The notes beneath the pieces are model-generated. The model had not been told where the DNA came from. It saw only the letters and a program-made list of their open reading frames with translations, and ran no database searches. DNA of 64,000 bases from Schmidtea polychroa (taxonomy: Eukaryota): positions 121,830,001 to 121,894,000 of the forward strand of contig CM097885.1 of assembly GCA_044892525.1 (NCBI GenBank), in the 5' to 3' direction. Below, piece after piece: positions 35,501-53,412 of the stretch. Position numbers and translations under genes: made by a program. Positions within the stretch are counted from its first letter, which is position 1. Every line of letters begins with the position of its first letter.

Positions 35501-38041
35501 GGAACTTGAGGTTGAATTATTCTATAGATTACATATATGTATATATTTAATTTTTGTGTTAGATCTCTATTATGAACTCAAACGCGCAAGAAAATAATAT
35601 TATTGAACAAAAAAATTCACTTATTAAAGATTTAGAAGAAAAGCTAAAAATTTTCCAGTAAAATTATTTATAATATAATATTTTAATACTTATCAGAAAT
35701 GATAATGACGAAATGAAACTCAGAATTGAATGTGTTGAACAAGAAAGGGAAAATTCTAAAACTTTTTTATCCTCATTGTCGGAAGAAAATATTGTATTAT
35801 CGAAAACTGTTGAGGTTTTATTTATCGTTTTATTTATAAGATACTAATATCAATCAAAACAGGAATTTAAAGCTCTATTGTTTTCACAAGATAAGGATTT
35901 ACAAATGGCAATTTCTGAGAAAAATGAATTGGTCAAAATTCAGAAAATTAACGAAGAGAAAATAAAAAATTTTGAAAAAAATACTTTTGAATTTGAGAAT
36001 ATTCTTTCTGAAAATAAATTTAAAATAACTTCTTTAGAAACTTTTGTTGATGATTTATCAAAAGAAAAACATAATATTTTGAAGTCTCGTGAAGATTTAA
36101 GGAAAGAATTAATGTTCACTTTAGAACAATGCAAGAATGAACATGAAATTGTTGAAAAAAAGAAAAACAAAGAAATTGAATATCTTAAAACTTTGGTGAA
36201 TTCCTTGACATTAGATTCACAAAATTTTACTAATAAATCCGTAACTTTTTTAAACTTATATCTGACTTTTTTACTTAAATTTAGAAAAGTAAATTGGGCG
36301 AAATTACATCTAAATTTAATAACCAAAAAGAAGAAATTGAAAAACTTGAAATTGATTTACAAAAAGTTAATGTCGAAAAAGTAAGGAAATTTTATTTTTT
36401 AAAACACTTCTGACTTATTTTAACTCTTTCAAGACTAGAGGGACATTATTTTCAGATCAATTGTCCCTAAAATTTCAGTCTTTAAAGGGTAATCTGTGGA
36501 ATGATATTATTGAACATATTTATGCTATGGTGGAGAATAAGGGTACTAATTTTGAAAATAAATGAATAAATAAATATTTGAATTGTATATTAACAATGAG
36601 ATTAACAGTGATTTATTAAGACAGAAAGAATTAGACTTTAATTTGGCCAAACGATTGTCTAATTTTGTTTTTACACTTGATTCTAAACTCATTTAATAAA
36701 ACTAAATTTTTTTCAACGCTGATTTAAAAAAGCTTTCTAATGTTACATTTCTAAATGAGTGTTTTCAATTTTCTTTTTGAGAACGACAAATCCATTTAAA
36801 GGAATTCAAAGATTCAGGTGTTCTGGTAAGGTTAGATTCTTTTCAACATATTTCACATAATATCCGTTCTCTTATTAACCCGTGTTCAATAAACCTTAAA
36901 ATTGTTTTCATATAATTTATTATTGCTAAAAGTTCAAAAAATCCATAATTCCAAAAAAAAATTTATATTATATTACATTATTTACATCATTACATTATTT
37001 ATTTAATTATTCTCCACCATAGCCCATATTTGTATATAATTAAATTAATATTATTTATGTTCGAAGGATCAAACAAAAAAGCTTTTGGATAGAGCAACTT
37101 TGTCAATAAATGATCTTTCCGAAAAACTTGTCAGTATGGTAAACATAAATTGCACTATATCATTGTGCTAATGTAAATATCATTTAGGAAAATGTAGTTG
37201 AAGAACTTGAAAGTTTGAAAAAGATTTTGAAAGCTGAGACTACTAAGTACGATAATGAAGTTGCGATTATGTCAAAAGAAATTGCTGAAAAAAATTCAAT
37301 TATTTCGAAATTAAGTGTGATTGAAATGGATTATACCAACCTAAAAAGTAAATTACTCTCAAACTCTCCTCCAATGTGCACTCAAATTCCAGAATATATT
37401 CAATTATCAAGTCTTGCAACTCCAAAAAGTCAGAAGCTTTCGACAAAATTAGAAAATTTCAATGAATTAACAAGTTTTTGTTCAAATGTTAGCTTAATAA
37501 AAATACTTTTTTTATTTTCTTGTTACTGATAGGTAACTATTTGTAAACAGACACCCCAGAAAACTCCAAAGGGAATATTGCGTCAACCTGGATCAGCAAG
37601 TAAAAGGCGAAAAGTAATATTCGATGAAAACGATCTAATTCAAACAAAGTTGGATATTTCTGACGAGTCGATCCATTCAGATGGTGTTGATATTGATTTA
37701 GAAAATATTGACTCTGTAAACAAAGAAAGTGCATCTATTATTGATAACTATAAACACAATATTATAATTGCAACTACCCCAAAAAAGCCATCTTCGGTTT
37801 GCAAATTGGTATAATTTACAATTTTATTTATACATTATTTATTTTTTAGAATTTAACCGATTCAAAAAATAATGGAAGAGTATATTTTTTGTAGTTTATT
37901 ATAATTTCTATATTAATTTAGTTAACCAATGTCAGAAAAACACCTTCCAAGGTTGTTTCAAAATTAAATGACAAACGCAAAAAAGATAAAGAAAATTGGT
38001 TTGATTCTGATAACTTTTTTGGATTCGGATTAGAAGCTTAA
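1515..38041 (+). CDS. SYCP1: Synaptonemal complex protein 1, 23 exons, about 1235 aa
   Basis: Hand-spliced GT-AG exons, all phases consistent, total 3708 nt: 1515-2347, 2388-2475, 2518-2583, 19190-19257, 22260-22333, 22377-22505, 22546-22619, 22660-22747, 22793-22887, 29046-29410, 35033-35100, 35143-35204, 35248-35364, 35406-35510, 35563-35657, 35697-35814, 35863-36240, 36285-36380, 37067-37129, 37188-37487, 37533-37808, 37850-37879, 37922-38041. Exons 2-5 give LKVLHMKLKIEAEKIQKWKENLEKQLFLKNQKLKESEKIIESLRTSNLEFQ...ENSRNLCQILK, matching the SYCP1 conserved motif (LYKEAEKIKKWK...QENRKIIEAQRKAIQELQ...ENNATRHLCNLLK). A long coiled coil and a basic TP/SP-rich tail ending WFDSDNFFGFGLEA follow. Confidence 0.9.
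2692..2873. repeat. Foldback/MITE-like element with terminal inverted repeat and two internal hairpins
   Basis: 22-bp perfect TIR AAGACTATAAATCAGTAAATAT / ATATTTACTGATTTATAGTCTT; internal inverted repeats at 2718-2729/2764-2775 and 2788-2802/2825-2839. Confidence 0.8.
3021..3152. other. Assembly gap (N run)
   Basis: Run of N bases inside SYCP1 intron 3. Confidence 0.99.
3153..3775. repeat. Degenerate repeated DNA-transposon end sequences
   Basis: Recurrent AAGTGA(T/C)CAGACGTCCCG...TGTCCCG motif near 3366 and 3716, with a partial copy near 3160-3195; resembles hAT-type MITE termini. Confidence 0.4.
5111..7413 (-). mobile_element. Buster-family hAT transposon B (GTF2IRD2/SPIN-like transposase, frameshifted)
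   Basis: TIR CAGGGATGCACA / TGTGCATCCCTG; perfect 8-bp TSD TTCTAGTT (5103-5110, 7414-7421). ORF pieces RKFNNCW, FSLAVDESTDISSTAQL, FHCIIHQQNLC, YYCEVRWL, FGSTYVCEQTFSVM. Confidence 0.92.
8939..9252. mobile_element. hAT (Buster/Charlie-type) MITE
   Basis: Right TIR TTGAGAACCACTG, degenerate left TIR CAGTGGTGCTCCTCAA; perfect 8-bp TSD CCTTAAGT; near-identical partial copy at 63250-63519. Confidence 0.9.
10100..10317. mobile_element. pogo-type (Tc1/mariner) MITE
   Basis: TIR CCGTATATACTCGCGTATAAGTC / GACTTATACGCGAGTATATAC flanked by TA; one arm nearly identical to the end of the pogo element at 57250. Confidence 0.85.
11160..18121 (-). mobile_element. hAT transposon C (ZMYM1-like transposase), split by element D
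   Basis: Perfect 8-bp TSD GTTACATC (11152-11159, 18122-18129); degenerate TIR; shared subterminal AGTGCCTAGGGCCTACGAA at both ends. ORFs 16479-17186, 12400-13281 and 11373-12458 join into one transposase (DSTPDISHMDQ, SQSYDNASNM, CAAHSLNLVG, SETRW, EGERSFSKLKRIKN) with a frameshift near 12400-12460. Confidence 0.92.
13246..16557 (-). mobile_element. hAT transposon D (ZMYM1-like transposase, frameshifted) nested in C
   Basis: Perfect 8-bp TSD ACTCTAGG (13238-13245, 16558-16565); TIR CAGGGCCGGATTTA with degenerate partner TAAATCCGGAATAG; GGGCCCC subterminal repeats. ORFs 15159-15959 and 13460-15118 carry DSTPDISHKDQ, SQSYDNAMNM, SKTRW, GERSFSKLKLIK. Confidence 0.92.
19670..19879. mobile_element. 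pogo-type MITE (diverged)
   Basis: CCGTATATACCCGCGTATAGG ... TATATGCGAGTATATATGG flanked by TA; same TIR family as 10100-10317. Confidence 0.75.
19896..22001 (+). mobile_element. Chapaev3-like (CMC group) DNA transposon remnant
   Basis: N-terminal FCYICG...DQDKKWDPHVSCGTC and VWR.PTNHITDCYFC; C-terminal SIKLHFLHSHLDFF...SEEHGERFHQDI...RYQGRW; begins with CACTG; several frameshifts. Confidence 0.65.
23063..25545 (+). mobile_element. Decayed hAT transposon (ZMYM1-like)
   Basis: Fragments CRAQCYDNTAVM, VKRESETHWSSR, IASCERSFSKLKLILSYLRASMG; 3' subterminal GGGCGCAAA repeats and TAACTACGCCTTTG end. Confidence 0.8.
23538..23571. repeat. (AAT)n microsatellite
   Basis: Direct AAT run inside the hAT remnant. 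Confidence 0.95.
25704..27205 (+). mobile_element. Internally deleted Buster/Charlie hAT (ZBED8/FAM200-like)
   Basis: TIR CAGTGTCGACAACC / GGTTGCCCGACACTG; perfect 8-bp TSD ATTTAAAC. N-terminal AKKKKPHAEAEEIVLPA and C-terminal LLPFGSSYLCEQGFSAL survive; the catalytic middle is missing. Confidence 0.9.
27623..28560 (+). mobile_element. piggyBac transposon remnant
   Basis: TTAA-CCCTTT left end; transposase fragment RPNCIAEYNKCMGGVDLCDMLM. Right end not found. Confidence 0.75.
29640..32770 (-). mobile_element. Decayed Gypsy LTR retrotransposon internal region (gag, protease, RT, RNase H)
   Basis: RT FSKIDLQKAYHQI; RNase H FFSKKLT...YSTFDREPLAI...KIFTDHKPL...YVAGKSN; protease region AIIGADFL; gag CYFHNKFG..KC. 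Many frameshifts. Confidence 0.85.
33839..34800 (+). mobile_element. Solo LTR related to the UBL/env LTR family
   Basis: Starts TGTTGG, ends AAACCCAACG; 33900-34200 aligns clearly with 46190-46480; carries CACGGAGTCAGA near its 3' end. No clean TSD. Confidence 0.65.
36523..37024. mobile_element. MITE in SYCP1 intron 18
   Basis: 17-bp perfect TIR GCTATGGTGGAGAATAA / TTATTCTCCACCATAGC; 8-bp flanks CATATTTA / CATATTTG (7 of 8 match). Confidence 0.65.
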
Positions 38042-39690: not shown

Positions 39691-39725
39691 ACCCAAAGTT
39701 GTGGAATACTAAATAATTGAACAGG

Positions 39726-40690
39726 TGTTGGGTTCAATAGGAACCGGAACCAAAAGTTTTGGAATTAAATAATAATTAATTAAAAAATAGTATTTAAAAA
39801 TTACCTAAAATAGAAAACAATTACTAAAATTAGAATTAAAATATAAATAGTAATAAACAATTACTAAAAATAGATTTGTAACAAAAATAGTAATTGTTTA
39901 AAAATATATAATAAAAATAGTAATTAAATAATTACTATTAATAGATTAAAATAAATAAAAAGGTATAAATACCAGTCGAAAAGTTGAGCTCAGGTACGGA
40001 AAAATAGGACGCGACAGAAAAGATTGAGAATTAATTGAAAGAAACTGTTATAAATAGATAAAGATTTTCTCGCATTTAGTGGTAGAAAATTTACATTGGA
40101 ATTTATTTCTAATTAATAACTGCAAGTCTGACTTGATATTCAATTATCGATTGGGAAAAAATTAACAAGTATTTTGGGATTTTCGCATCATTTATACAAT
40201 AACTTAACTCCAATACCTATTGGAGTATTAATTAAAGAAAAAAAGGAGGATAGATTTTTAGCAAGCTCAACAACCAATCTGTGGTTTATTTTGCTCTATT
40301 TTTGGAATATTAGATAGTTAGTATTATTATTGTTAACGTCATCACATATTTTTGTAGCTGTTTCGTTTCAAACAAAATTTAAAGTGTTAACCATTTTCTC
40401 CGTTGACACTATCGCGGTTAAAATTTGGTAAACATCCCTATCTCTTTCGTTCACCTATATCGGGCTGTTGGCGCATTTGGGCCAGCCTTGATTCTTAGAT
40501 ATACTCTTTAGGGCGGTTTGTATAACCGTTTTCTGTTCTTTAGGGTGCAGCTAGGTTGTTTTTGTATTATAAACAATTGTGTATAAATTATTTACTTTTA
40601 ATAAATATTTAAATTATATTCGTTATTTATTTACCTAGAGTCAGATAAACGTTTTGTATTAGTTCGACTACATACCCATCGAACCTAACA
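39726..40690 (+). repeat. 5' LTR of element 1 (965 bp)
   Basis: TG...CA ends with 9 of 10 inverted terminal match; directly followed by TTT and the PBS. Confidence 0.85.
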
Positions 40691-40693
40691 TTT

Positions 40694-40711
40694 TGGTGAG
40701 CCCGGCGTGAT
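40694..40711 (+). promoter_or_regulatory. tRNA-Trp primer binding site
   Basis: TGGTGAGCCCGGCGTGAT matches the complement of the canonical eukaryotic tRNA-Trp 3' end (ATCACGTCGGGGTCACCA) at 16 of 18 positions. Confidence 0.8.
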
Positions 40712-40777
40712 AAAATTATCAGCGGTTAGAAATTGAAATAAAACAAAATAGCGTTAGGAACTAGAGCCAGAGTAAAA

Positions 40778-41368
40778 TTGGATAATCAAATGGCAGAAGA
40801 AGCTAATGTAAACGCATTTGCCAGATATCGCGCTCTGCCCGTAAAGGTATTCAGCGGTGATCCGGGAGAATTCCCAGAGTTTATGTCTGAATATTATCAG
40901 ATGGCAAAGGCATATGCTTATCCAGATAATATCATGATACAAAGGCTACCCATATATCTGAAGGGGCTGGCAAGAGAAAAATATAATGACATTACAGCAT
41001 TACCAGTTGCTCAAGTACCAAAAACATGGGCCGAAATGAGAGAACAAATGACTGTTCGAATATTGCTCGGAGATGCGGGAAGAATATTTAGACAACAATC
41101 TTACCATCGAAAACAAAATGCCAATGAACATGTGGGGGAATTTGCACACCAGTTATCATTTATTGCCGAAAGTGCATTTGGTCCGAAAACCACATGGGCA
41201 AAGCCAACAGAATTGTTAGTTAAGGATCAACTATGGGCAGGACTTACTCCTACAATGAGGAACGCCCTAATACTAAACACTAGTGATGATTTTGATGAAT
41301 TAACACGGAAAGCTGTCGTAATTGAAAGCAGCTTGGAAAAGTCAACCATGTTCCTTGTAAACAGTTAG
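40778..41368 (+). CDS. Gag capsid-like N-terminal part of element 1
   Basis: LPVKVFSGDPGEFPEFM...RLPIYLKGLAREKY...YHRKQNANEHVGEFAHQL is typical Gypsy-type Gag and aligns with the ORF at 50667-51167. Separated from the downstream frame by a stop and a frameshift. Confidence 0.8.
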   Translation: MDNQMAEEANVNAFARYRALPVKVFSGDPGEFPEFMSEYYQMAKAYAYPDNIMIQRLPIYLKGLAREKYNDITALPVAQVPKTWAEMREQMTVRILLGDAGRIFRQQSYHRKQNANEHVGEFAHQLSFIAESAFGPKTTWAKPTELLVKDQLWAGLTPTMRNALILNTSDDFDELTRKAVVIESSLEKSTMFLVNS

Positions 41369-41381
41369 AGAACACCGGTAG

Positions 41382-44300
41382 TGTTTCAATTGCCATAGAA
41401 AAGGGCATATAGCGAAAGATTGTACCAGCAGGAAAATTATGGACAATCGTAAAAGTATACAATGTACCAAATGTGGATGGAATAACCACGGTGCGGAAAA
41501 CTGTAGAGTACAGAATTTGCAATGTGAGAAATGTAAACGAAAGGGACACGTTGCTGCAGTCTGTAAGACTAGAAGCTCTCAGAACAGCAATAATTTTAGT
41601 ACGGTTAAAAGAGATGATGTAAATTCATCGGGAAAGATAAAATGTCACGGATGTGGGAAATTCGGACATATGATGAGGTCATGTCCTCAGAATCAGAGTG
41701 GAAACACGGGTCAGTTCAATAAAAATACCGATAAGGGTAATGTGAACAAGCCTAAGACGACTTTTATGGTTAATCAGGATCAAGGGTTAACTTATCTGCA
41801 ACAATTGGAAATGGAAATCCAGGAGGAAAAGAATAGGTTGGCTAGATTGACCGACCAAGAAGGCACCATCTTTAAGGTAGAAGTTGGAAGAGATGAATTT
41901 CTTAAAAAAAAGGACTCCATTAGAAAGGACCTTCAGGAAACGGAATCAGAGGAGAGTTCCGATGATGAACCTAGTATGGCCACCATACTAAGCGAGTTCG
42001 ATAGAACCTTTCCAGGGAAAGCAAAGGTAAAAGGAGGGTCAGATACCCTAACAAAATGTTTAAAACTGGTGGATTCCAGATATGAGTACCAGCAGAAGCT
42101 GGCCAGACAATTGGAAAAATTGACAGAAACAGAGATTAAAATTCACGAAATCGATACAGTAGTAAAACTGATATCGCAGGTCGAAGATGATCCAAAGTAT
42201 CATAACGACACGTACAAAATCCTAAGGAAATTAGGAAAACTCATGGAACATGAATGGGACCTCCAAGATGCCCAACTCAATATAAAACTCCCACAGGATA
42301 AAGAGTATAATCTCGATATAAACTTAAGAAATCGAGCCGATAAATTAACGGAAACATTGACAAGTATTAAGCATCAAGGATATGACTTATACTTATGTGG
42401 AATAAAATTAGAAGCAAACCAAACACTTCTACAGAACGGGATACTCCCAGGTAGAGTGACGAAGCTCACAGCAAAGAGTGCACCGAAGCCAGTGGCAGTA
42501 ATGGATCAATATAGTGTATTCTTGATTACTCAGATGGAAATAGAGAGATTGGAGGAAACTCAACAATTAACCCAGCGACTAGGGTTAGAATTGCAGAAAT
42601 CACCACGAGATGGAGAAACTATAAAGGAAATACTTGACTGGATGTTAGTATTACGAATACCAGTAGATTTGTTGGAAGCAATAATTCCACTTATTCTACC
42701 AGTGGTAAAGGAAACAAGCCCATTCCAGACGCAAATAGAAGCACTGATGAGGAAAAATGGGAAAGCTATCCGAAGTCAGCCTGATAGACAAGGCAACATT
42801 AATCTAGACGTGCGAATCATGGGAAAAGAACCATTAACAATGATTTATAATTGTTATATCAAGGTTAAAATATTAAGGAGAGATGTGATTGCCACCGATC
42901 AAACTACAGGTATATTCCTGATAATTGTCCATGGTAGGCAAGTGGATGATCACGAATATCTAGTGGATGTGGGTTGTCTACCGTTAGCAACAACCACGGT
43001 AATGATCATCCCAGTAACTCCACCCGAGTCCCAGTGGTCATTAATGAGACTGCCAGATATAGCAAACGAAATTGCGGAAGAAATCGAGGAAATAAGGCTA
43101 GAGGAAATTAATCCCTGTCAAATGGTGGACATTGACGAGGAAGATTACTTCTCAGAGTATGTCAGATTAAACCCAGGAGAAACAAACCTAGGAGCTACTA
43201 CGTCACAAGCGGTAACAAATCCGGAGACAGAAAAACCCCCGGAGAAAGTGAAAAAAGATGGACGAGGACGTCCTAGAAAGGATCAAATGAAACCTCCACC
43301 CAACGAGCAGTTAAATCCGGAAACGATTCGGAAAATTCAGCTAAAAACATTAGCAGGGATAGCTCAAGAAGTGGACGGCCAGGCGGAAGATGAGACAACG
43401 CCAGAGAGGTCGTTATTGTGGCAACGTATACAACAAATGATCGGGATTATCAGGCCCGAATGGAGAATTCCAAAGATCAAGGGAATCGAAGTAAAGAAGA
43501 TAACGAAAGAGGTTAAGAAGACAATGAATAAAGTATCCAAAGACGTATCAACTGGAAATATTCAGGATGCCATAGAAGCATTCGTACAGCAAGGATTAAC
43601 AAGAGGGAAAGTGGTAACATCGCTTTCACTGTTAATTCAACATGCCTTAGTCCGAGCAGGGGACGATAAAAAACTTATAGAACGAGAAATCGATCAAATA
43701 GTCGAAATGGTAGATTATTACCTTGAGGTATGGATGACCGTAAACAAATTTTGGGAAAAGGAAATGATCCCAAAACCACGATATGAAGTCGTGGAAGAAG
43801 CCATAGATAATGGTAGTCCAGGCACAGGAAACATGACAAGCATGATCCTGATGTTTCTAGTAATGATGGGCATATTAAAACAAACAAATTCACTAACAGT
43901 ATTTGACTGTGGAAATCCTAAACTATCTCGGATATATTCGCTAGTAGATGCAATTGAGTGCAAAGAGGCGTATCCAGAGAAGGTTCATCAAGGGGAAAAG
44001 GTAGAATATTACGTCTACCAAGAGAGTGAATTTTATAGAACCACGATAAAGGAATGTAGAATTCAGAGAGCTACATTTGAATATTATTGCGGTAGTAATA
44101 GCTATTCTGCTTTTCTATCTGCAACATTAATACCAAGGCCAGTAAACATAATGCCCGAAGATTGCCTAGATGCATTTCGAAAAGGAAGCGTGAGGATAGA
44201 TAACGAGGTATCAATCTCGGCAGAAATTGGGAAAACATTGGGAATAACAATCACTCGAGGAGGAACAATTGCCTCAGGTGGAACCGGCAAAGGCAGAAAG

Positions 44301-45482
44301 AAAATTCGCGGTAGTAATTTAGTTTCCTATGTGGTAGACATAGAAGATTACTCAGTAGAGCTACGAGAATATGAGGGAACATTCGATGTGGCCACAGGAA
44401 AATTGATGGCACATCCGCAATGCAATGCCAAGTTCGGTAGTTGTAAAACGGGAACCACTACATTAATTTACGAACAAATGAGAGATCATTGTGAGTTGGC
44501 TTTCCTCAAGAAAATTCCTTTTAGAAAATTAAATGGAACTAAATACCGAGACTCCCAGAATCCAGAAAAGGTGTGGGATAAAGCAAAAACGTTGAAGAAA
44601 ATCAACAAACAAGAGAAGAAAGATATCGGAGAGGAAAACACACCTCTAGTGTTGATATTGGAAGAAGAGACGGACGCAATTCGATTCTTCCGAAAAGATA
44701 AAAAGACTAAATGTGGGAAAAGAGTATACGAGACGAACTACAAAGGAATTTTCCTGTCAAGAGAATATATTCGAAATTCCAAGATCCTACATGTAAAGGA
44801 TATCAAAATCACGAATTATATTAATAATAAAGTAGATTATTTATATCATGACCTGCAAGGACAAATGCAAGATATGTATCAAGAGGTGATACTAAACAAT
44901 TGCAAGCTTAATCGTGAAATAGTCCGAAATAGATTAGCAATATCTATTGTTAACCCAGAGTTGGTTACTCCAATGTTATTAGAAGATGGGATGTTTGGCA
45001 GAATCATGGGAGAAGCTATATATAGCTATGAGTGTAAACCAGTGGAAGTACAATTAGCCAGATTTAATCAATGCACTCTGGAACTGCCAGTATCCTATCA
45101 AGGAAAATTGAGATTTGTCATGCCAGTAACCAGAAAGTTACTTGAAGAAAACGCTAAACCTCAACCAGCAATATGCAACCCGGCAATATCACCGTTATAC
45201 AAAATAAATGACATGTGGATATCTTTGCCGGAAAGAAAACCATCTACACAACGAGTAGAGACCTTGGAGGTAACTAAATTAAAGGATAATATGGGATTCA
45301 AGTCATTAGATGAATTAGCTAAAGGAGGGATTTACACTCCCGATGATATCGAAGAAGCAAGAAGGACACTGCTATTTCCACAAATCAGAGACAGTGGTAT
45401 CACGGAAATTATAAGAACAATTTATTATGATATTTTAATACGACCAGAAAACCAATTTATTATTTGGTCCGGAACACTATAA
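41382..45482 (+). CDS. Polyprotein: 4 CCHC knuckles, UBL-helical-UBL, AT-hook, signal peptide, chuvirus-like glycoprotein ectodomain
   Basis: Frame open from 41382 (CFNCHRKGHIAKDC, upstream of the annotated ATG at 41439), then CTKCGWNNHGAENC, CEKCKRKGHVAAVC, CHGCGKFGHMMRSC. UBL-like segments at about 42270-42476 and 42795-43013; GRGRPRK at 43260-43280; hydrophobic MILMFLVMMGILKQTNS followed by LTVFDCG at 43893. No protease, RT, RNase H or integrase motif. Confidence 0.8.
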   Translation, partial: CFNCHRKGHIAKDCTSRKIMDNRKSIQCTKCGWNNHGAENCRVQNLQCEKCKRKGHVAAVCKTRSSQNSNNFSTVKRDDVNSSGKIKCHGCGKFGHMMRSCPQNQSGNTGQFNKNTDKGNVNKPKTTFMVNQDQGLTYLQQLEMEIQEEKNRLARLTDQEGTIFKVEVGRDEFLKKKDSIRKDLQETESEESSDDEPSMATILSEFDRTFPGKAKVKGGSDTLTKCLKLVDSRYEYQQKLARQLEKLTETEIKIHEIDTVVKLISQVEDDPKYHNDTYKILRKLGKLMEHEWDLQDAQLNIKLPQDKEYNLDINLRNRADKLTETLTSIKHQGYDLYLCGIKLEANQTLLQNGILPGRVTKLTAKSAPKPVAVMDQYSVFLITQMEIERLEETQQLTQRLGLELQKSPRDGETIKEILDWMLVLRIPVDLLEAIIPLILPVVKETSPFQTQIEALMRKNGKAIRSQPDRQGNINLDVRIMGKEPLTMIYNCYIKVKILRRDVIATDQTTGIFLIIVHGRQVDDHEYLVDVGCLPLATTTVMIIPVTPPESQWSLMRLPDIANEIAEEIEEIRLEEINPCQMVDIDEEDYFSEYVRLNPGETNLGATTSQAVTNPETEKPPEKVKKDGRGRPRKDQMKPPPNEQLNPETIRKIQLKTLAGIAQEVDGQAEDETTPERSLLWQRIQQMIGIIRPEWRIPKIKGIEVKKITKEVKKTMNKVSKDVSTGNIQDAIEAFVQQGLTRGKVVTSLSLLIQHALVRAGDDKKLIEREIDQIVEMVDYYLEVWMTVNKFWEKEMIPKPRYEVVEEAIDNGSPGTGNMTSMILMFLVMMGILKQTNSLTVFDCGNPKLSRIYSLVDAIECKEAYPEKVHQGEKVEYYVYQESEFYRTTIKECRIQRATFEYYCGSNSYSAFLSATLIPRPVNIMPEDCLDAFRKGSVRIDNEVSISAEIGKTLGITITRGGTIASGGTGKGRKKIRGSNLVSYVVDIEDYSVELREYEGTFDVATGKLMAHPQCNAKFGSCKTGTTTLIYEQMRDHCELAFLKKIPFRKLNGTKYRDSQNPEKVWDKAKTLKKINKQEKKDIGEENTPLVLILEEETDAIRFFRKDKKTKCGKRVYETNYKGIFLSREYIRNSKILHVKDIKITNYINNKVDYLYHDLQGQMQDMYQEVILNNCKLNREIVRNRLAISIVNPELVTPMLLEDGMFGRIMGEAIYSYECKPVEVQLARFNQCTLELPVSYQGKLRFVMPVTRKLLEENAKPQPAICNPAISPLYKINDMWISLPERKPSTQRVETLEVTKLKDNMGFKSLDELAKGGIYTPDDIEEARRTLLFPQIRDSGITEIIRTIYYDILIRPENQFIIWSGTL

Positions 45483-46120
45483 AGAAGCAGCAAAGAACGT
45501 AATGATGAAAATATGGGAACGATTTACCAATTTTGGTATTTTCGTCGCCGGATGTTCAGGAATCTACGCAGTATTTGTAATTTTAAAGCTGATAATTACA
45601 CAACTAATGTCAACATATAGCATATTCAAAATTGGGAGATGGTATTGGAAACTGCTATTAGGATTATGTCCTATGTGTGCAGAGTTTGCATTATTCAAAC
45701 ATCACAGAAAAGAAATTAAAGAAATTAGACAGAAACATTTGGTCAAGCATGAAGTAATTGGAACAGAAATGGAGGAGTATTCTAGTTATCGGGACGATAA
45801 CAATTCAAAGGGAGGAGGTAATGGAGGCTCTCGTGAAACATCTTCAAGACAAAATCAACCACGAAAACAGAACTACAACAAAAAACCGACTCACCAACAA
45901 AGAAAATCGAGATTTAAGGAATATCTCCCTCCATATGACCAATCAAAGGAAATCTACGTGAGAAGACAGTCATCAGAAGGAGAATATGACAGTTCCGACC
46001 AAAAATTCGACATAAGATCACCCAGATTCAAGAGAAGTCCAAGATATGTACAATTGCCAACTTTGAGGAGTTTACCATCCGCACCAAACGATGGGCGGGA
46101 ACATTCAAGGGAAACAACAA
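45439..46120 (+). CDS. Env membrane-proximal region, transmembrane anchor and cytoplasmic tail (frameshifted from the main ORF)
   Basis: LLFGPEHYKEAAKNVMMKIWERFTNFGIFVAGCSGIYAVFVILKLII fits the membrane-proximal plus TM pattern of chuvirus-like glycoproteins; the frame runs into the 3' LTR remnant. Confidence 0.7.
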
Positions 46121-46146
46121 CGACTACATACCCATCGAACCTAACA

Positions 46147-47542
46147 CAGGTTTCCTCTCGGTTTTGTTCAAAGATCTTGCTTCGCTAATTCAAAACTAAT
46201 CAACTTTATTGATTTTGTTGAGGATACCTAAATAATAAATTTAAATAATTAATAAATGCGTAAAATGATTGGAGGGAAATCATAATAAATGAATGGAGTG
46301 TTGTCCTAGAGCACAGTAAAATAAGAGTAGAAGAGAGATATTGAAAAATCAGAAGAACACAGAAGAAAATCAATAAAAACAGACAATTAAATAAAAGAAA
46401 GTCATTCTTATTTAACAAGTACAAGCATAAAAGAAGCAAAACAAATTTAAATTATCTTTTTATCTCCATGGCCTATTTGAGATAAGTGTTGAGGTCCTTA
46501 AATTAAAATAAATTTAAATGAAATTTAGGTTAATAATCTAAATAAAAAGTAAGTGAAGAAAAAAGACAAATAAAAGCGTGATCATGCACAGAATCGATAG
46601 TAAAGGAAAGTGTGATTCAAGCAGTATTAGAAAATGCCAAAAGCAATTACGAAAGGCAAGAATCCGAAAATCCGAGAAAAATCAATAAATTGTAAAATTA
46701 TCGAAATCGAATTGGGAAAACGGGACAGGTATAGAGTAGCTAATGGTCAACAAGATGATGGTTAGGGATTTATCAGAAAATGGTTAGGAAGGGTCGAAAA
46801 GCATCCAAATGTGTAAAAACAGAAAATGTTGATTTATTAATTAATTGGCTAATAGAAAACCTGAGCTAATGGGAAACCCGAGCCAGTGAGAACCCGAGAG
46901 ATGAAGGAAACCCGAGCTGGGTAAACAAGAAGAAAAGTAAACAGAAGGAAGATTTGGGCCCATTAGCTTGACACAATGATTAATTGGAAAAGAGCAAGGA
47001 GAAGATAGTGCGTGTAGAAAGGCCGGAAGGGCCATTAATTATCTTAGCTCGTTGGACCATTATGGGTGACAGCCGAAGCAGATACGTGGAAGCAAATGTC
47101 AAATGAAAGATTGGCTTGGCAATAACCATTTATCATCCCGATTTCGAGAAGTATATAAGGAAAGGGAGAATCAGAGCAAATCGGCATTTTGCCTCAGGTT
47201 GGGTAAGAAGAAACTGAGCTTAGGAAAAGGCGAAAACGAATCTAGATTAAGGAAAAAGAAGAGATAGAATAAGAATAAAAAGCGTGAAAAGGATCAAATC
47301 AAAAAGAGAAAAAAGGAAAACGTTGGTCAAGAGAACCTAAGAAACTAAAAGGTGAATATTATCTTTATCAAAGCATCAACACCGAGCGGAGAACCAGTCA
47401 AACGGAACTTTGATTATTAATTGTAAAGTGGTGATAAAGGATTGTGAATTTATTATTTCAATATACGTTGGGTCGTTATTGTTTGATTTAAAGGACACGA
47501 GGAGTCAGAGGGAACCGACTTAAAGTAATCTAAAACCCAACA
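46147..47542 (+). mobile_element. Solo LTR of a sister family, interrupted near its left end (about 39700) by element 1
   Basis: Ends AAAACCCAACA; aligns with the inverted LTR at 51327-52215 (AATATACGTTGGG...ACACG.GGAGTCAGAG...AAAACCCAACA and the AACCCGAGC repeat block) and with 33900-34200. Confidence 0.7.
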
Positions 47543-47629
47543 TAAGGATAAAGGAACATGGGAAATCCGAAAGATGAGATCGTCAAAAATATATAAGTAA
47601 TGATATTACTTTATAGGTCAAAGACCAAA

Positions 47630-48855
47630 TGTGAAGCAGTTCAGAGTATATTGCGTAATTCAATACAATGTGTTAGTTATTACGCAATATACATTACTAT
47701 TTAAGAGTGATCACTCTATGTTAATGTAAATAAATCTTTAGATGGAACCAATTGTTGTAACTGGTGACCACGCCGAAAATGTTCACACAATGACGACTCG
47801 AGGAGAAGGGAAAAAGTCTGCAAGAGTCTCACTACCGAAACGTGCGCAAGAACTCTTGGATATGGAAACTAGAAGATACGACTGCAGATGTACCAAGGAA
47901 GCTGAAAAATGGATATAGGCAATTAATGATTGGATCGCTAGGAATGATTTGAAGAGGACAGAAGCATTTGATTTTCTCCTTTGCGATGAAGTGGCTACGC
48001 TGTGGAAAAATTTCAAAACAGAAAAAACAACAGATAAAACAGCTAAAGAATGGTTTTCCGAAACATTTACAATTAAATTGACTATTATAGACAAGATTAA
48101 TGAACTTGCTGCAATTAGACAAGAGGAAAATGAGAGATATTCTACCTTCGAAATCAGGGTATTAAAATTAGTGAGTGAAGTTATTAATTCAGGAATGAGG
48201 GTAGAGGAGATTGCCAATGAAATTATAACTGGACGAGTCAGAGATAGAAGATTAAAGGATGTTCAAACAATAAAACCAACGATGACAGCAGAAGAACGAA
48301 ATCAACTGGCCAAAATTTACGAGAAAGTGGAATCAAAAGAAAAGACAGAAGAAATTATGGTAATAAAGAAGAGTAGTTACGCGGAAGCAACAAGAAGAAG
48401 GAATTCAGAAACGTTTGCAAGAGAAACAAATGGAAGTAACACCAATGTATTAAGAAGCCAAGGAAATTACAGAAGAGAGAATTTACCAGATAATTCATAT
48501 AACAGAAATAACGAAATGAATCATACAGTCGAATGGAATGTGCAGAGAAGGACACCGATGGTTTCACTTAAACACATCGCCAAAAGATTATAAAATCGAT
48601 CTCGAGACCTTCCTGATCCAAGAAACGGCTAATTAAAGCCAGGCCAATGTTTTTTCTGTGGAGAATATTGGCATAGAAGATATGAATGTCTACTAAAAGA
48701 TAAATGTTTGATATGTTTTCCGTGATTGTTATTTATTAAGAAAGAAAGAACAACAGAACTATGAGAAAAAGGAAATGATAGCTTGTGTGCATGACGAAGA
48801 AAACGGAAGAAATTACTCGTATGATGCAGAAACAAGAGAATCAATTAATGATTAT
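47630..48855 (+). mobile_element. Truncated LTR retrotransposon 3 (unrelated family): short LTR, PBS and gag pseudogene
   Basis: About 130-bp LTR-like segment, PBS-like TGGTGACCACGCCGA at 47762, gag-like frame from ATG 47790 with internal stops and knuckle CFFCGEYWHRRYEC at 48648. Confidence 0.6.
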
Positions 48856-48859
48856 GCAA

Positions 48860-51800
48860 TTCATGATGTGGAAACTGAAAAAATTACTTCATGTAAAATT
48901 TTGTTTTTTGACCCAAAACCTTTCAACTCAGCTTCATTTAGCTCCTCAGATAATTCAGTTTTAATTACTCCAATCTCATCATCTTCCTCTTTTACGATTC
49001 TAGGCCAGTAAGTTACAATAACCTCGTTTTCAGACATTTCATCCTGTGGCTTCGTTGCATAAACATTATTTATGTAATTTGTATTAAATCCGCAATTAGC
49101 TAAATTTTCGTCATCGTCTAACTCTATTCCTTTGTAAGTCAGTACAATAATCCCATTATTTCCCATTGTTTCTGCAGCTTTTTGTCGTAATTTTGACACC
49201 TTTACGCTCCAGTGCTATTGAAAGTATTCAACTTTTCCATCAATATTTGGAGCTATCATTAATGATTTCGAATTACACTCCGGTTCTCTGTAATCATATT
49301 TTAAGTTCCGTAGAATTTCCTTTAATCTGGTTTGATATTTCGTTTTTTTATGAATATGCGGCAAAATACGTTCGAACAGCTTCTCTTTATCTTTTCCATT
49401 CATTTTTGAACTCATCACTAATTCAAGACATTTATTGATCTCGTCCTCATCAACGATATATAACATGTCTCGCAAATTCCTTAGGGTTTCGTTCCAATTT
49501 TTAAAATCTGAATTTGAATGATTAAAAGTATCCAAAATATTTACCTCATTTTTCAATCAGGGATTAAACCACAATCTACCAAGTATTCCGCATCCTTCAG
49601 TTTTCCCATTTACCGTTGTGTCAATTTCACGCTACCTTTATTGTATTTAGCCAGAATAAGCATTGTCAAATCTTTGATTTGTCCATAAGGATTGATAGAA
49701 AATTGAGCTTTAATACCATTGATGTCTGTGGTCTCCACGATAATATTATCCAAATCGTTTTTGGATCTTAATGCTTTTCCAAATGTTCTCATTAATTTAG
49801 CAATTTCCTCATCTTGGAGTATGCTGTAAAGCTTAGAACATAAGTTCAATGCACTTTTCAATTTCTTATGACTAAGTTGGATCTGACTTAACTACGTAAC
49901 CCACTCTTTCAATCTTGGATTGTTTGTTTCCATATTTTGAGCCATCTTTCCATTTTATTTAATAACAACGTAGCCTTTTGTTCAACAAGTCATTTTTTAC
50001 TTTATTAGCAAAGTTTTCCGAAATATTTTCGTACGCCATATAAGAGTCTGCTCCGTCATCAAATTCAATTTTCGACATCAACTTGTCTAATTTTTTCTCA
50101 TTTCTCGAACTTCATTTTCCATCTTTTCTTTAAAGTCGTCTTTTTGAGCATAAGCTACATTGGCATTGATTGATTCATCTTGAAATTTACTTGATTTCTT
50201 GGGATATCTAGAAGGTGATATAGTTCTTGAAAAACAATTTCTGCTAATGTGGCCCATTTTTCCACATCGATAACATTCAATGTCACCATTGTTTGGCTTA
50301 TTTTCAGTAAATCTATCTTTGGGACTCATATTTCTACCATTTCTGAATCAACATTGATTTGAATAATATCCAGGCTTCTTGCAAAACTCGCATACAATAT
50401 TATTCAATATCTCGTTTATTTGATTACTAAAAGTTGCTTTATTAACTTCCAATTTATTACCTAATCTTGGAGAGCTGTTTGATTTAATTGGTTCTTTTGA
50501 TTCCCATTGATTCTTTACTGGAGTTATCGCCCTTTCTCTTTTCTCGGCATTTGCGGCAAATACTTCAGATTTTCTGGTACTTTTTAAATTCAATTCAATT
50601 TTCATTGCTTTCTTCACGAGTTCATCGAAATTCGAAAAATCTACGTAGCATAGTGCTTTTTTTATTTCAGGATGGGCTCGTTATAAATTGATCTTCTAGC
50701 AGTTCTCTGACTTGTTTCACCATCTCCACTTGTTCAGGCTTTGCTTCGAAGGCTTTGTCTGCTAAAGTCGTTAAATGGAATGCGAATTCACTCAACGATT
50801 CATTTGGATTTTGTACTCTGGCATAAAATTTTTGTCGCATTATCCTTTTAATATCGCCTCCCACCAATTTCATTGCCATAGCGTCTTCGAGTTTGGCCCA
50901 ATCATTTCCAACTGTCTTTCTATCTACTTGCTGCCAAGCTTCTCTAACAGCTCCTTTTAAATAGAGTGGGAATCTTTGTACCAATATTGATTGTGACCAC
51001 CCATAGGCCGAAGCGTACATATAACAATCGCCCATGAAATCGGCAAACTCAACCGGGTCTCCTCCATACTGATTCACCGGTAATTTTTGACAACTGGCAA
51101 AATCTATCATCTCTGCGTTCTCTCTGGCCATCTTTACTTTTCGGTTTCTCAAATTGTATTCACTCATTGCTAAATATTAAAATTAATAATCAATAATTAC
51201 TACCTCTTTCAAATACCCCGATTTCCAATTATTTTCAAATTTTTATTACTTTAATTTTCTTCACCTCTTTTCACTCTTCAATATTCGCCCACCAACGTTT
51301 GATCACGTCGGGCTCACCAAAATATATGTTGGGTTTTATGATATCAAAATCAACCGTTGGTTACTCTGACTCCACGTGTTCCAAAATCAATAAACACAAA
51401 CTCCCAACGTATATTTGTTTTATAACAATTCACAACTCTCAACAATTAATCACACTGTCGGTTAATCACAATTCTCACACAATTTCAGATCGGACTCCGC
51501 TCTGGAAGGTCTCAACCTCGTACGATTAAAAAATTAGGTTTCACCTTTTGATTTAGTTCCACTCTCTGATCCAATCTCCTTTGACGCTTCTTGTCTAACT
51601 CTTCAGTTTTTCCTATAATTCTTTTCTTCTTATATTCTATTCCTTTAACTCCTAATGTCGTTTTATTCTTCCCTACCTAAGGCTATTGCCCATTATGTGA
51701 ATTTTAAGTTTCCTTATAATCGTTGTAATTGCCCCATTTTTGACCTAATTGGTTTTGACTTCTTTAGTTATCATTCCCTAATTGGCTATTTCTTTTGACC

Positions 51801-52215
51801 ATCTTCGTAATTCCCCTTCTTTTGTTTACCCTTGTTTATCCGGTTGTTTGGATAATTGCCCTCGAGTGCCTCGTTTTTTTACCCTTCCAAATTTCCGTGC
51901 TCGGGTTTTCTTCATCGCTCGGGTTATCCATTGGCTCGGGCTTTCCATTAGCCAATTAATTAATTAATTAATATTTTACGTTTTTCACATTTGTCTATTT
52001 TACGACCCTTTCTACACATTTTCTAACAATTTCTTCTTCACTATCCCCTAATCTACCTCTCTCCCGTTTTCCAGCTTCAATTTCGATAACTTTTCACATC
52101 ATTCCACTTCCTCAGCTTTGCACATTTTTCCATTTTATGTCTGATTATAACCCTTTTATAGTTCTGTTTTTATCATATCTTTCTTTACATTACTTCTCTG
52201 CTTGACCACCCTTTG
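48860..52215 (-). mobile_element. Truncated LTR retroelement 2, same family as element 1: LTR, PBS, gag, knuckles, UBL-helical-UBL
   Basis: LTR 51327 to about 52215; gag 50667-51167 homologous to 40778-41368; knuckles CEFCKKPGYYSNQC and CYRCGKMGHISRNC; UBL-like segments 49556-49747 and 49053-49265; several stops and frameshifts. Confidence 0.8.
51302..51319 (-). promoter_or_regulatory. tRNA-Trp primer binding site of element 2
   Basis: Minus strand TGGTGAGCCCGACGTGAT matches the complement of canonical tRNA-Trp 3' end at 17 of 18 positions. Confidence 0.85.
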
Positions 52216-52437
52216 TAGTGAATTAAAAATTTCAAAAATTAAAAACTTAAAGTGAATCTGAAATTTGATCAAAAAAAAATTACTTTATTTCTATAAAATA
52301 GAATTCTTTATTTCTATAAAAACAGAATGCTTTATTTAATTGTGTAAAAAAAATTTAGTTTTAAAAATATAATAAATTTTGAATTTCTTGAATATAATTA
52401 TCAATTGGTTTATTCTTAAATATCAATATCCAGAAAG

Positions 52438-53412
52438 ATGTTAACTAGAAGCATTATAGATTTTTACGATAATAAAGCAATTTTTATAACTGGTGTTACG
52501 GGATTATTAGGTAAATCAGTTATTGAGAAATTATTAAGATCAGAAGGCGCATCAGTAGCCGAAAGATTTGCCAAGCTTATATCATCAGACTTTCCCGATT
52601 TAGTCAGAATAGAAAATCCCAAAGCACTTAATAAAATTACAGCATTTGCTGAAAATGTAACTGATGTTAATTTCGGTTTAAATTATAACGGTTTAAATGA
52701 ATTATTAAACAATGTATCTGTTATCATGCATGCTGCTGCCACTGTCAGATTTAATGAGCCGTTAAAATTGACGACAGAAATGAATGTAATACCCGTTATT
52801 AAGCCGATGGAAACGTGTCATCAAATGAAGAATCTTGAAATTTTAATCCATGTTTCAATATCGCATGTAAATTATGATATGGAATTTGTGCATGAATACG
52901 TTTATCCGCCATCATTAGATCCTTATAAGGTTGTCGATATCGTCCAGTACTTGATTGAGGATCTGGTCAATCTGATCATTCCAGATATGTTGAAAAACAA
53001 ACCAAATACTTATACATTCACGAAGCAATTGGCTGGATATACTATTCAGCAAAACATTGATAAATTACCATTAGTGATCGTTCGGCAATCAGTTATTGGA
53101 GCTTCTGTCATTGAACCGTTTCCGGGTTGGACGGATAATTTTAATGCAGTTACTGGACTTATCGCCGCTATCAGCAAAGGTATGCTGAGGTCAATGATGG
53201 GAGATTATATCAAGTCCACCAATATCATCCCGGTTGACACAAACGCCAATTTTATAATTGCCGCTGGCTGGTATTCTGATGGTACATATGTTATTAAATT
53301 AGCAAATGAAAATGTCCAACCAAATGAAAAGGCCACCAAACAAGAAGAAGCCGACTACGACACCCTTCAATTTCGGTTTTCCTTTTACTCGGAACTATTA
53401 GATTTGATATAA
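52438..53412 (+). pseudogene. FAR: Intronless, truncated fatty acyl-CoA reductase copy
   Basis: FYDNKAIFITGVTGLLGK Rossmann motif, HAAATVRFNEPLK, catalytic NTYTFTK, IVRQSVIGAS..EPFPGWTDN...IIPVD. About 15 aa missing after KLLRS; no C-terminal Sterile domain; no introns. Confidence 0.8.

Follow-up and report, generated by a model that had tools for sequence, protein, structure and literature searches.

A deleted endogenous retrovirus in Schmidtea polychroa appears to represent a family whose full-length members encode Gag, Env and Pol in one frame. The stretch analysed here, called the window, comprises 64,000 nt of assembly GCA_044892525.1 (CM097885.1, 121,830,001-121,894,000), and all part positions are window coordinates. 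We read the element at 39722-46150 as an inactive, deleted copy of a Burro-like Ty3/gypsy endogenous retrovirus whose full-length counterparts would make a one-frame gag-env-pol polyprotein, cleaved by protease and signal peptidase, and carry a separate second open reading frame (ORF2). We put the probability of this reading at roughly 0.8. An earlier note on this DNA had described a chuvirus-like class III envelope glycoprotein fused in frame to Gag in a Gypsy-like element; it did not recognise the window copy as a deletion derivative, nor that Env lies upstream of Pol in the same frame. The window copy consists of the following parts.

39722-39725: left target-site duplication (TSD), CAGG; the same 4 bases recur at 46147-46150
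39726-40690, + strand: 5' long terminal repeat (LTR), TG...CA, about 965 bp, 71-83% identical to LTRs of full-length copies
40694-40711, + strand: primer-binding site for tRNA-Trp, with one mismatch in this copy; its complement fits host tRNA-Trp(CCA) genes
40790-41368, + strand: Gag capsid region up to a premature stop at 41366-41368; other copies are open past this position
41382-41700, + strand: nucleocapsid with CCHC zinc knuckles (reading frame, Pfam)
41800-43830, + strand: accessory region X, the Gag-Env interval, with a helical stretch and probable ubiquitin-like and Bcl-2-like domains
43833-43892, + strand: putative internal Env signal peptide (hydropathy, -1/-3 residues), which may also serve as C-terminal anchor of the Bcl-2-like domain
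43893-45480, + strand: class III fusion glycoprotein ectodomain, chuvirus-like with predicted gB fold, frame break near its end (Pfam, AlphaFold2, fold search)
45439-46119, + strand: end of the ectodomain, transmembrane (TM) anchor at about 45532-45618, second short hydrophobic Cys-Pro stretch and cytoplasmic tail, in a shifted frame
46119-46121: deletion junction, about 8 kb gone; unique, and the matches of 22 of 23 other copies end here
46121-46146, + strand: remnant of the 3' LTR (its final 26 bp), with the same sequence as 40665-40690
46147-46150: right TSD, CAGG, matching the left one

The window copy is dead: gag contains a stop, the env frame is broken, and about 8 kb were lost in a one-time deletion. 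Its frame 41382-45482 (1,366 amino acids (aa)) runs from the CCHC knuckles through a long spacer and a hydrophobic stretch to LTVFDCG and a Cys-rich ectodomain. The frame breaks at about 45440-45480 and continues in the next frame (45439-46188), and one nearly invariant Env cysteine of the family is absent. Lost with the deletion are the protease (PR), reverse transcriptase (RT), RNase H (RH), integrase (IN), a second membrane protein, ORF2, the polypurine tract and most of the 3' LTR. Since the locus retains only Gag, region X and Env between two TSDs, it could be taken for a non-autonomous gag-env satellite or a domesticated host gene, a most improbable explanation. The junction pattern occurs a single time in the whole genome, indicating a one-off deletion and no satellite family; with the polypurine tract and nearly all of the 3' LTR gone, copying by the standard route is impossible, and both Gag and Env are interrupted. 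The single-copy junction and the two breaks refute a satellite or domesticated gene.

Full-length relatives elsewhere in the genome contain the part that the window copy has lost. In a DNA search of the genome, 24 of 2,131 candidates were scored, among them 23 other copies 92-94% identical to the window element; in 22 of the 23 the match ends at the window deletion junction. When part of ORF2 served as query and 150 of 1,171 candidates were scored, 129 matched at 55-100% identity and the other 21 at 43-44%, and the genome relatives of the element number more than 100. Full-length copies of the family, termed A, are 14.6-14.9 kb long, with clean LTR pairs (97.9-99.7% identical) in 7 of 11 copies and a readable 4-bp TSD at 8 of the 11 places. 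Their first frame (ORF1) of about 3,350 aa comprises Gag, CCHC knuckles, X, signal peptide, Env, TM anchor, tail, PR, RT, RH and IN, Env being fused at its C-terminus to Pol. Env tail, PR and RT share one frame in 10 of 11 copies read, two of which are free of stops from Gag to RT, and in one family-A copy an open frame of 3,090 aa extends from Gag past integrase to the second signal peptide. Stop-free frames of 3,516 aa and 3,334 aa are found in sister families B (two of three copies read, with 100% LTR identity) and C (7 of 68 scored matches), respectively, and the Env-before-Pol fusion recurs in 9 of 13 scanned database relatives. In the PR-RT spacer of about 120 aa, the place of a dUTPase-like domain in the named giant Burro families, Pfam gave no dUTPase match. 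In one family-A copy (L017, G000:C3, ~55.10-55.11 Mb) RT is split by unrelated long open reading frames, probably an inserted DNA element.

As the earlier note had proposed, the family most probably belongs to Ty3/gypsy and not to BEL/Pao. TG...CA LTRs, a primer-binding site, a polypurine tract and a short TSD are all present; the duplication is the 4-bp repeat that the note had reported. Full-length copies possess the order PR-RT-RH-IN, an H2C2 zinc finger and a GPY/F module, all deleted from the window copy, and Gag of family C matches Retrotrans_gag (Pfam, E = 2e-9). The best PDB match of RT/RH is Ty3 (E = 5.5e-58), in a list that held no competing BEL/Pao RT. No Pfam family that we take to mark a BEL/Pao-type Gag, protease or RT was returned for the family or the scanned database relatives. 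Membership in BEL/Pao, as an Anakin-like element, has a vanishingly small chance: the order PR-RT-RH-IN is common to both groups and chuvirus-like G occurs in Pao elements according to the text on Anakin (PMC7642597), but RT/RH lies closest to Ty3, the Gypsy-type RT_RNaseH, H2C2 and GPY/F domains are present while families of BEL/Pao type are not returned, and the closest published relative was classed as Ty3/gypsy by its authors (PMC13524379). The host genome yields 821 pattern matches for tRNA-Trp(CCA), and 99 of the 100 listed lie in one tandem array (L047, G000:C4, from ~55.02 Mb) with a period of 284 bp; tRNA-Trp is also the primer of this element family.

The window Env is a class III, chuvirus-like glycoprotein by protein family and modelled fold, and membrane fusion is its predicted activity. 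The motifs quoted in the earlier note are present in frame 41382-45482, with the WERFTNFG-TM part in the next frame (45439-46188), and the mature N-terminus, reported there as xxGYDCG-like, in fact reads LTVFDCG. Pfam family PF24664 (Monjiviricetes_fusion) matches both frames, the first with E = 5e-67 and the second with E = 7e-10, and its score of 226.7 bits exceeds the cut-off (27). For 43893-45422, an AlphaFold2 model built from 91 sequences (pLDDT 89.8) shows the gB-like fold of class III fusogens, including the beta-rich fusion domain and the long central helix. Structure searches of the kind that the note had suggested returned both herpesvirus gB and chuvirus-like G. Each of the 35 PDB rows listed was a herpesvirus gB (lowest E = 7e-14, TM-score about 0.45), and the best BFVD matches were chuvirus-like glycoproteins (E = 1.7e-36); G of Wenling crustacean virus 14 superposes with a TM-score of 0.82 and a root-mean-square deviation of 3.7 Å. 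The Pfam score and these fold matches make the class III assignment solid. At the sequence level, a search of the PDB with Env gave no match, only the fold search doing so, and a word-index homologue search with the ectodomain found none; an exhaustive search gave 1,199 matches. Hydropathy and conserved -1/-3 residues outline a signal peptide, ectodomain and C-terminal TM anchor, and dN/dS values of 0.04-0.11 (7 pairs) indicate strong purifying selection. In a quick tree of 47 rows (3 from this genome and 44 of 150 database matches, no named references among them), 14 of 15 polyprotein-embedded Envs cluster together with an SH-aLRT support of 98, separately from the chuvirus-like G proteins that stand free, and the tree therefore singles out no particular viral donor.

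Env is most likely released from a single polyprotein threaded through the endoplasmic reticulum membrane. The in-frame fusion to Gag claimed in the earlier note holds: one frame leads from the zinc knuckles into Env. About 680 aa lie between the two, and gag and env of the window copy are interrupted by the stop and the frame break. Release by signal peptidase, also suggested there, is the most likely route, since 11 of 12 long relatives have, ahead of the xxAYDC/xxFDC start, a hydrophobic core followed by small residues at -1/-3. Host signal peptidase would cut twice, each time on the lumenal side. The gB-like fusogen would be freed by the first cut, after which the Bcl-2-like domain would stay in the membrane by a tail anchor, like cellular Bcl-2 proteins. 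Beyond the Env TM anchor the chain would be cytosolic, with Pol first tethered to the Env tail in a manner reminiscent of flavivirus polyproteins, and the short hydrophobic Cys-Pro stretch would have to remain on the cytosolic face. There the aspartic protease of the element could cut at the motif T/S-I/M/T-F/L-M/L/T-V, which in family A is found at the capsid/nucleocapsid, nucleocapsid/X, Env tail/PR, pre-RT and RH/IN borders and in family B, independently, at the same three Pol borders. A second signal peptide after integrase would direct an FN3-like ectodomain to the lumen, freeing a second type I membrane protein.

Env might instead be made chiefly from a subgenomic RNA, produced by splicing and beginning at the signal-peptide Met, with release from the polyprotein as a minor route. 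Retroviral env is normally spliced, the signal peptide does open with Met, and the element apparently uses an acceptor-like site for ORF2. We nevertheless consider this quite unlikely: the T-rich acceptor seen before ORF2 is not present before 43833, in every family the frame passes the X/Env and Env/PR borders without interruption, 9 of the 13 scanned database relatives likewise read from Env into Pol, and the upstream region X is itself under purifying selection.

Region X separates the Gag zinc knuckles from Env by about 680 aa of accessory domains and evolves with a dN/dS of 0.21, indicative of purifying selection. Directly before the Env signal peptide, at about 43450-43780, lies a candidate Bcl-2-like domain for which the evidence is weak but consistent. 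A six-sequence profile searched against the PDB returned Bcl-2-family chains in 59 of the 60 rows shown (best E = 0.013), and Pfam Bcl-2 matched below its curated cut-off in family C (E = 0.013) and in the database relative P0004 (E = 0.00096). The probable ubiquitin-like domain had no match in the window stretch, where its position (about 42790-43000) was placed by eye only; sister families B and C gave ubiquitin-like matches with E values of 0.034 and 2e-4. Single-sequence Pfam and PDB searches with the family-A Bcl-2-like, ubiquitin-like, FN3-like and ORF2 stretches returned no significant family.

Beyond the GPY/F module of integrase, ORF1 encodes a second signal peptide, an ectodomain of 250-340 aa and a TM anchor. 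Signal peptide and anchor are found in all four families of this genome and in all three database proteins that reach past integrase, the anchor being least clear in P0017. The ectodomains have diverged strongly (25% identity between families A and B), and a dN/dS of 0.20 points to purifying selection on this second membrane protein. Three lines of evidence are consistent with a weakly supported FN3/Ig-like fold: the leading ESM Atlas assignment was FN3/Ig-like (0.89); 11 of 12 matches in a profile search were adhesion proteins bearing FN3 domains (best E = 3e-4), an identity that for the matched domains we partly presume; and the best Foldseek match was an NCAM FN3 domain (E = 1.6e-4), obtained with a model of pLDDT 54. 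Between integrase and the second signal peptide, an R-Y-P/N-L-R motif is conserved (L018, L037, L049, L054); it also occurs at the Gag N-terminus of family C (L050), and we take it to resemble the chromatin-binding motif of foamy-virus Gag.

ORF2 appears to encode an ISG20/REX-like exonuclease domain and is found as a separate frame of 475-775 codons in families A, B and D, whereas family C has no open reading frame of this size after ORF1. Both fold and homology point to a DEDDh-type domain: RNase_T accounted for 29 of 30 ESM Atlas matches (0.95), ORF2 of family D matches ISG20L2 (E = 1.6e-9), and the family A and D proteins match each other (E = 1e-21). Family D retains most of the catalytic acidic residues and His, family A has lost them, and ORF2 of families A and B is catalytically degenerate. 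Because catalytic residues have been lost while ORF2 remains under purifying selection, with a dN/dS of 0.05 in family B, the data suggest an RNA-binding pseudo-nuclease. In the database relative P0017, a DEDD-like domain was placed by eye ahead of Env, at the N-terminus; several database relatives (P0002, P0003, P0006, P0018) carry 2-4 aspartic-protease-like repeats after Env.

ORF2 is probably translated from spliced or trans-spliced RNA. We prefer this route because, in families A, B and D alike, the Met of ORF2 is preceded within a few bases by a T-rich ...AG resembling an acceptor, and because family B does not have the sequence TGA-CAATTA. Contigs from 4 runs on the 3' half of the element showed no joint at the ORF2 acceptor, a result that is uninformative either way. 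Stop-codon readthrough, which would make ORF2 a C-terminal extension of ORF1, draws on the in-frame TGA-CAATTA that 8 of 11 family-A copies and one diverged relative carry ahead of a long open frame; TGA followed by CAATTA is a leaky-stop context. We regard readthrough as unlikely, since ORF2 of family B lies in a different frame without this context, the ORF1 stop context of family D is unrelated, and the acceptor-like site is common to all three families. As a general route to ORF2 it is rejected, being broken by family B.

Several observations weigh against the overall reading. ORF1 is broken in every one of the 11 family-A copies read, although the positions of the breaks vary from copy to copy. 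The Gypsy assignment depends on Pfam domains and on a Ty3 best match in a PDB list free of BEL/Pao RT, and, taken singly, the assignments of Bcl-2-like, ubiquitin-like and FN3 domains are weak. For the post-integrase ectodomain, Pfam fn3 matched in none of 5 ectodomains, VIA-align gave only generic Ig-like beta-sandwich matches (Z up to 9), and the model is of low confidence. The protease border motif was picked after family A had been viewed, which makes its shuffle statistic circular, and family C has no match to it. If the second hydrophobic stretch behind the Env anchor crossed the membrane, Pol would be placed in the lumen and the proposed topology would fail. Finally, a single polyprotein would yield equal amounts of Gag, Env and Pol, which is unusual for a retrovirus-like particle.

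The domain order may further indicate a two-glycoprotein envelope derived from one polyprotein, which we propose tentatively and at less than even odds. A gB-like fusogen encoded before Pol would be paired with a captured FN3/Ig-like protein encoded after integrase, the latter acting as attachment protein, fusion trigger or immune decoy, while the Env signal peptide would anchor a viral Bcl-2-like protein and the spliced ISG20-like (pseudo)nuclease would be an RNA-binding accessory. Triggering of herpes gB requires partner glycoproteins. Because gB, the structural match of Env, needs such partners, the conserved second surface protein, under purifying selection, is a natural candidate for a fusogen partner. 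Two membrane proteins processed by signal peptidase would then flank a cytosolic Pol in a compact full-length family, for which particle formation and infectivity are predictions. If correct, the elements would form a complex lineage of endogenous retroviruses in which attachment is the task of a separate protein; we found no description of such a lineage. The second membrane protein also provides a testable handle on cell-to-cell movement of young multicopy elements, a question raised for Burro in the review text (PMC6431247).

The surroundings of the insertion contain further LTR elements and host-like frames. Exons of a host coiled-coil gene lie upstream (35848-37814, + strand). Directly behind the element, 46486-47544 (+ strand) is an LTR 86% identical to that of family C (L050), which probably either is a solo LTR or terminates a nested copy. 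Another LTR-element start occupies 47745-48593 (+ strand), with a TGG-type site resembling a primer-binding site near 47762 and an unrelated gag-like frame without Pfam match at 47919-48593 (+ strand). A decayed family-C-like element at about 49035-52095 (- strand) retains an LTR remnant, a tRNA-Trp primer-binding site (51323-51302) and a broken gag (51176-50225). The intronless frame at 52420-53412 (+ strand) resembles fatty acyl-CoA reductase (NAD_binding_4, E = 5e-47) and is possibly a retrocopy.

A gB-type Env in frame within a Gypsy element has already been published, and the window finding is not a new envelope capture, contrary to the novelty implied by the earlier note. As given in its review text, planarian Burro (2019) has env in frame between gag and pol, with matches to mononegavirus glycoproteins (PMC6431247), and a 2026 catalogue describes gB-type GAG-ENV-POL Ty3/gypsy elements from flatworms, nematodes and bryozoans (PMC13524379). 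According to the text of the catalogue, baiting with the chuvirus-like BEL/Pao glycoprotein recovered 114 arthropod gypsy elements, elements of GAG-ENV-POL order do not form a monophyletic group, and six gB-type elements of Schmidtea mediterranea are listed in supplements (PMC13524379). Smed_errantivirus_4 and its flatworm kin share with the present element Ty3/gypsy membership, a gB-type Env, GAG-ENV-POL order and a multicopy state, and the window Env shares 115 of 190 residues, about 61% in a count by eye, with the Env domain I-II row of Smed_errantivirus_4 (PMC13524379). The family described here is nonetheless distinct, with a tRNA-Trp primer where none is listed for the six Schmidtea elements (PMC13524379). 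For a post-integrase FN3 protein or an ISG20-like ORF, we found no description in these elements within the text covered, which lies outside figures, Repbase, subscription journals and five supplements of the catalogue, and the catalogue's main text does not mention fibronectin, Bcl, Burro, exonuclease or readthrough (PMC13524379). The second surface protein of full-length copies is thus apparently undescribed.

Burro/GYPSM1 resembles the present element in having one polyprotein with CCHC Gag, a ubiquitin/SUMO-like domain (probable here), a BCL2-like domain, Env and PR-RT-RH-IN, but is longer (>30 kb against 14.6-14.9 kb here; 4,873 aa against ~3,350 aa), and its review text names neither a post-integrase membrane protein nor an exonuclease ORF (PMC6431247). 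With env in frame in the gag-pol interval of one polyprotein, the element here is Burro-like; it is not a giant Burro, which exceeds 30 kb and carries MATH, BIR and ankyrin domains, for none of which Pfam gave a match in the present element. Nematode NERVs, which Sacco et al. reportedly described in 2022, are said to combine a Metavirus-type RT with env before pol in a continuous gag-env-pro-pol frame; their host phylum differs from that of the element here. Anakin of mosquitoes likewise carries a chuvirus-type class III glycoprotein in an LTR element but is described in its text as BEL/Pao, in contrast to the Ty3/gypsy element here (PMC7642597). An Env capture independent of Anakin's is plausible, no named Anakin being among the rows of the Env tree. 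Similar to ORF2, ORF3 of bdelloid rotifer LTR retrotransposons is an extra 3' ORF encoding a DnaQ-like DEDD exonuclease, in the text of that study an RNase D-like DEDDy enzyme that replaces env (PMC5408684), whereas ORF2 is ISG20/REX-like and stands alongside env, and families A and B have a degenerate form of it.

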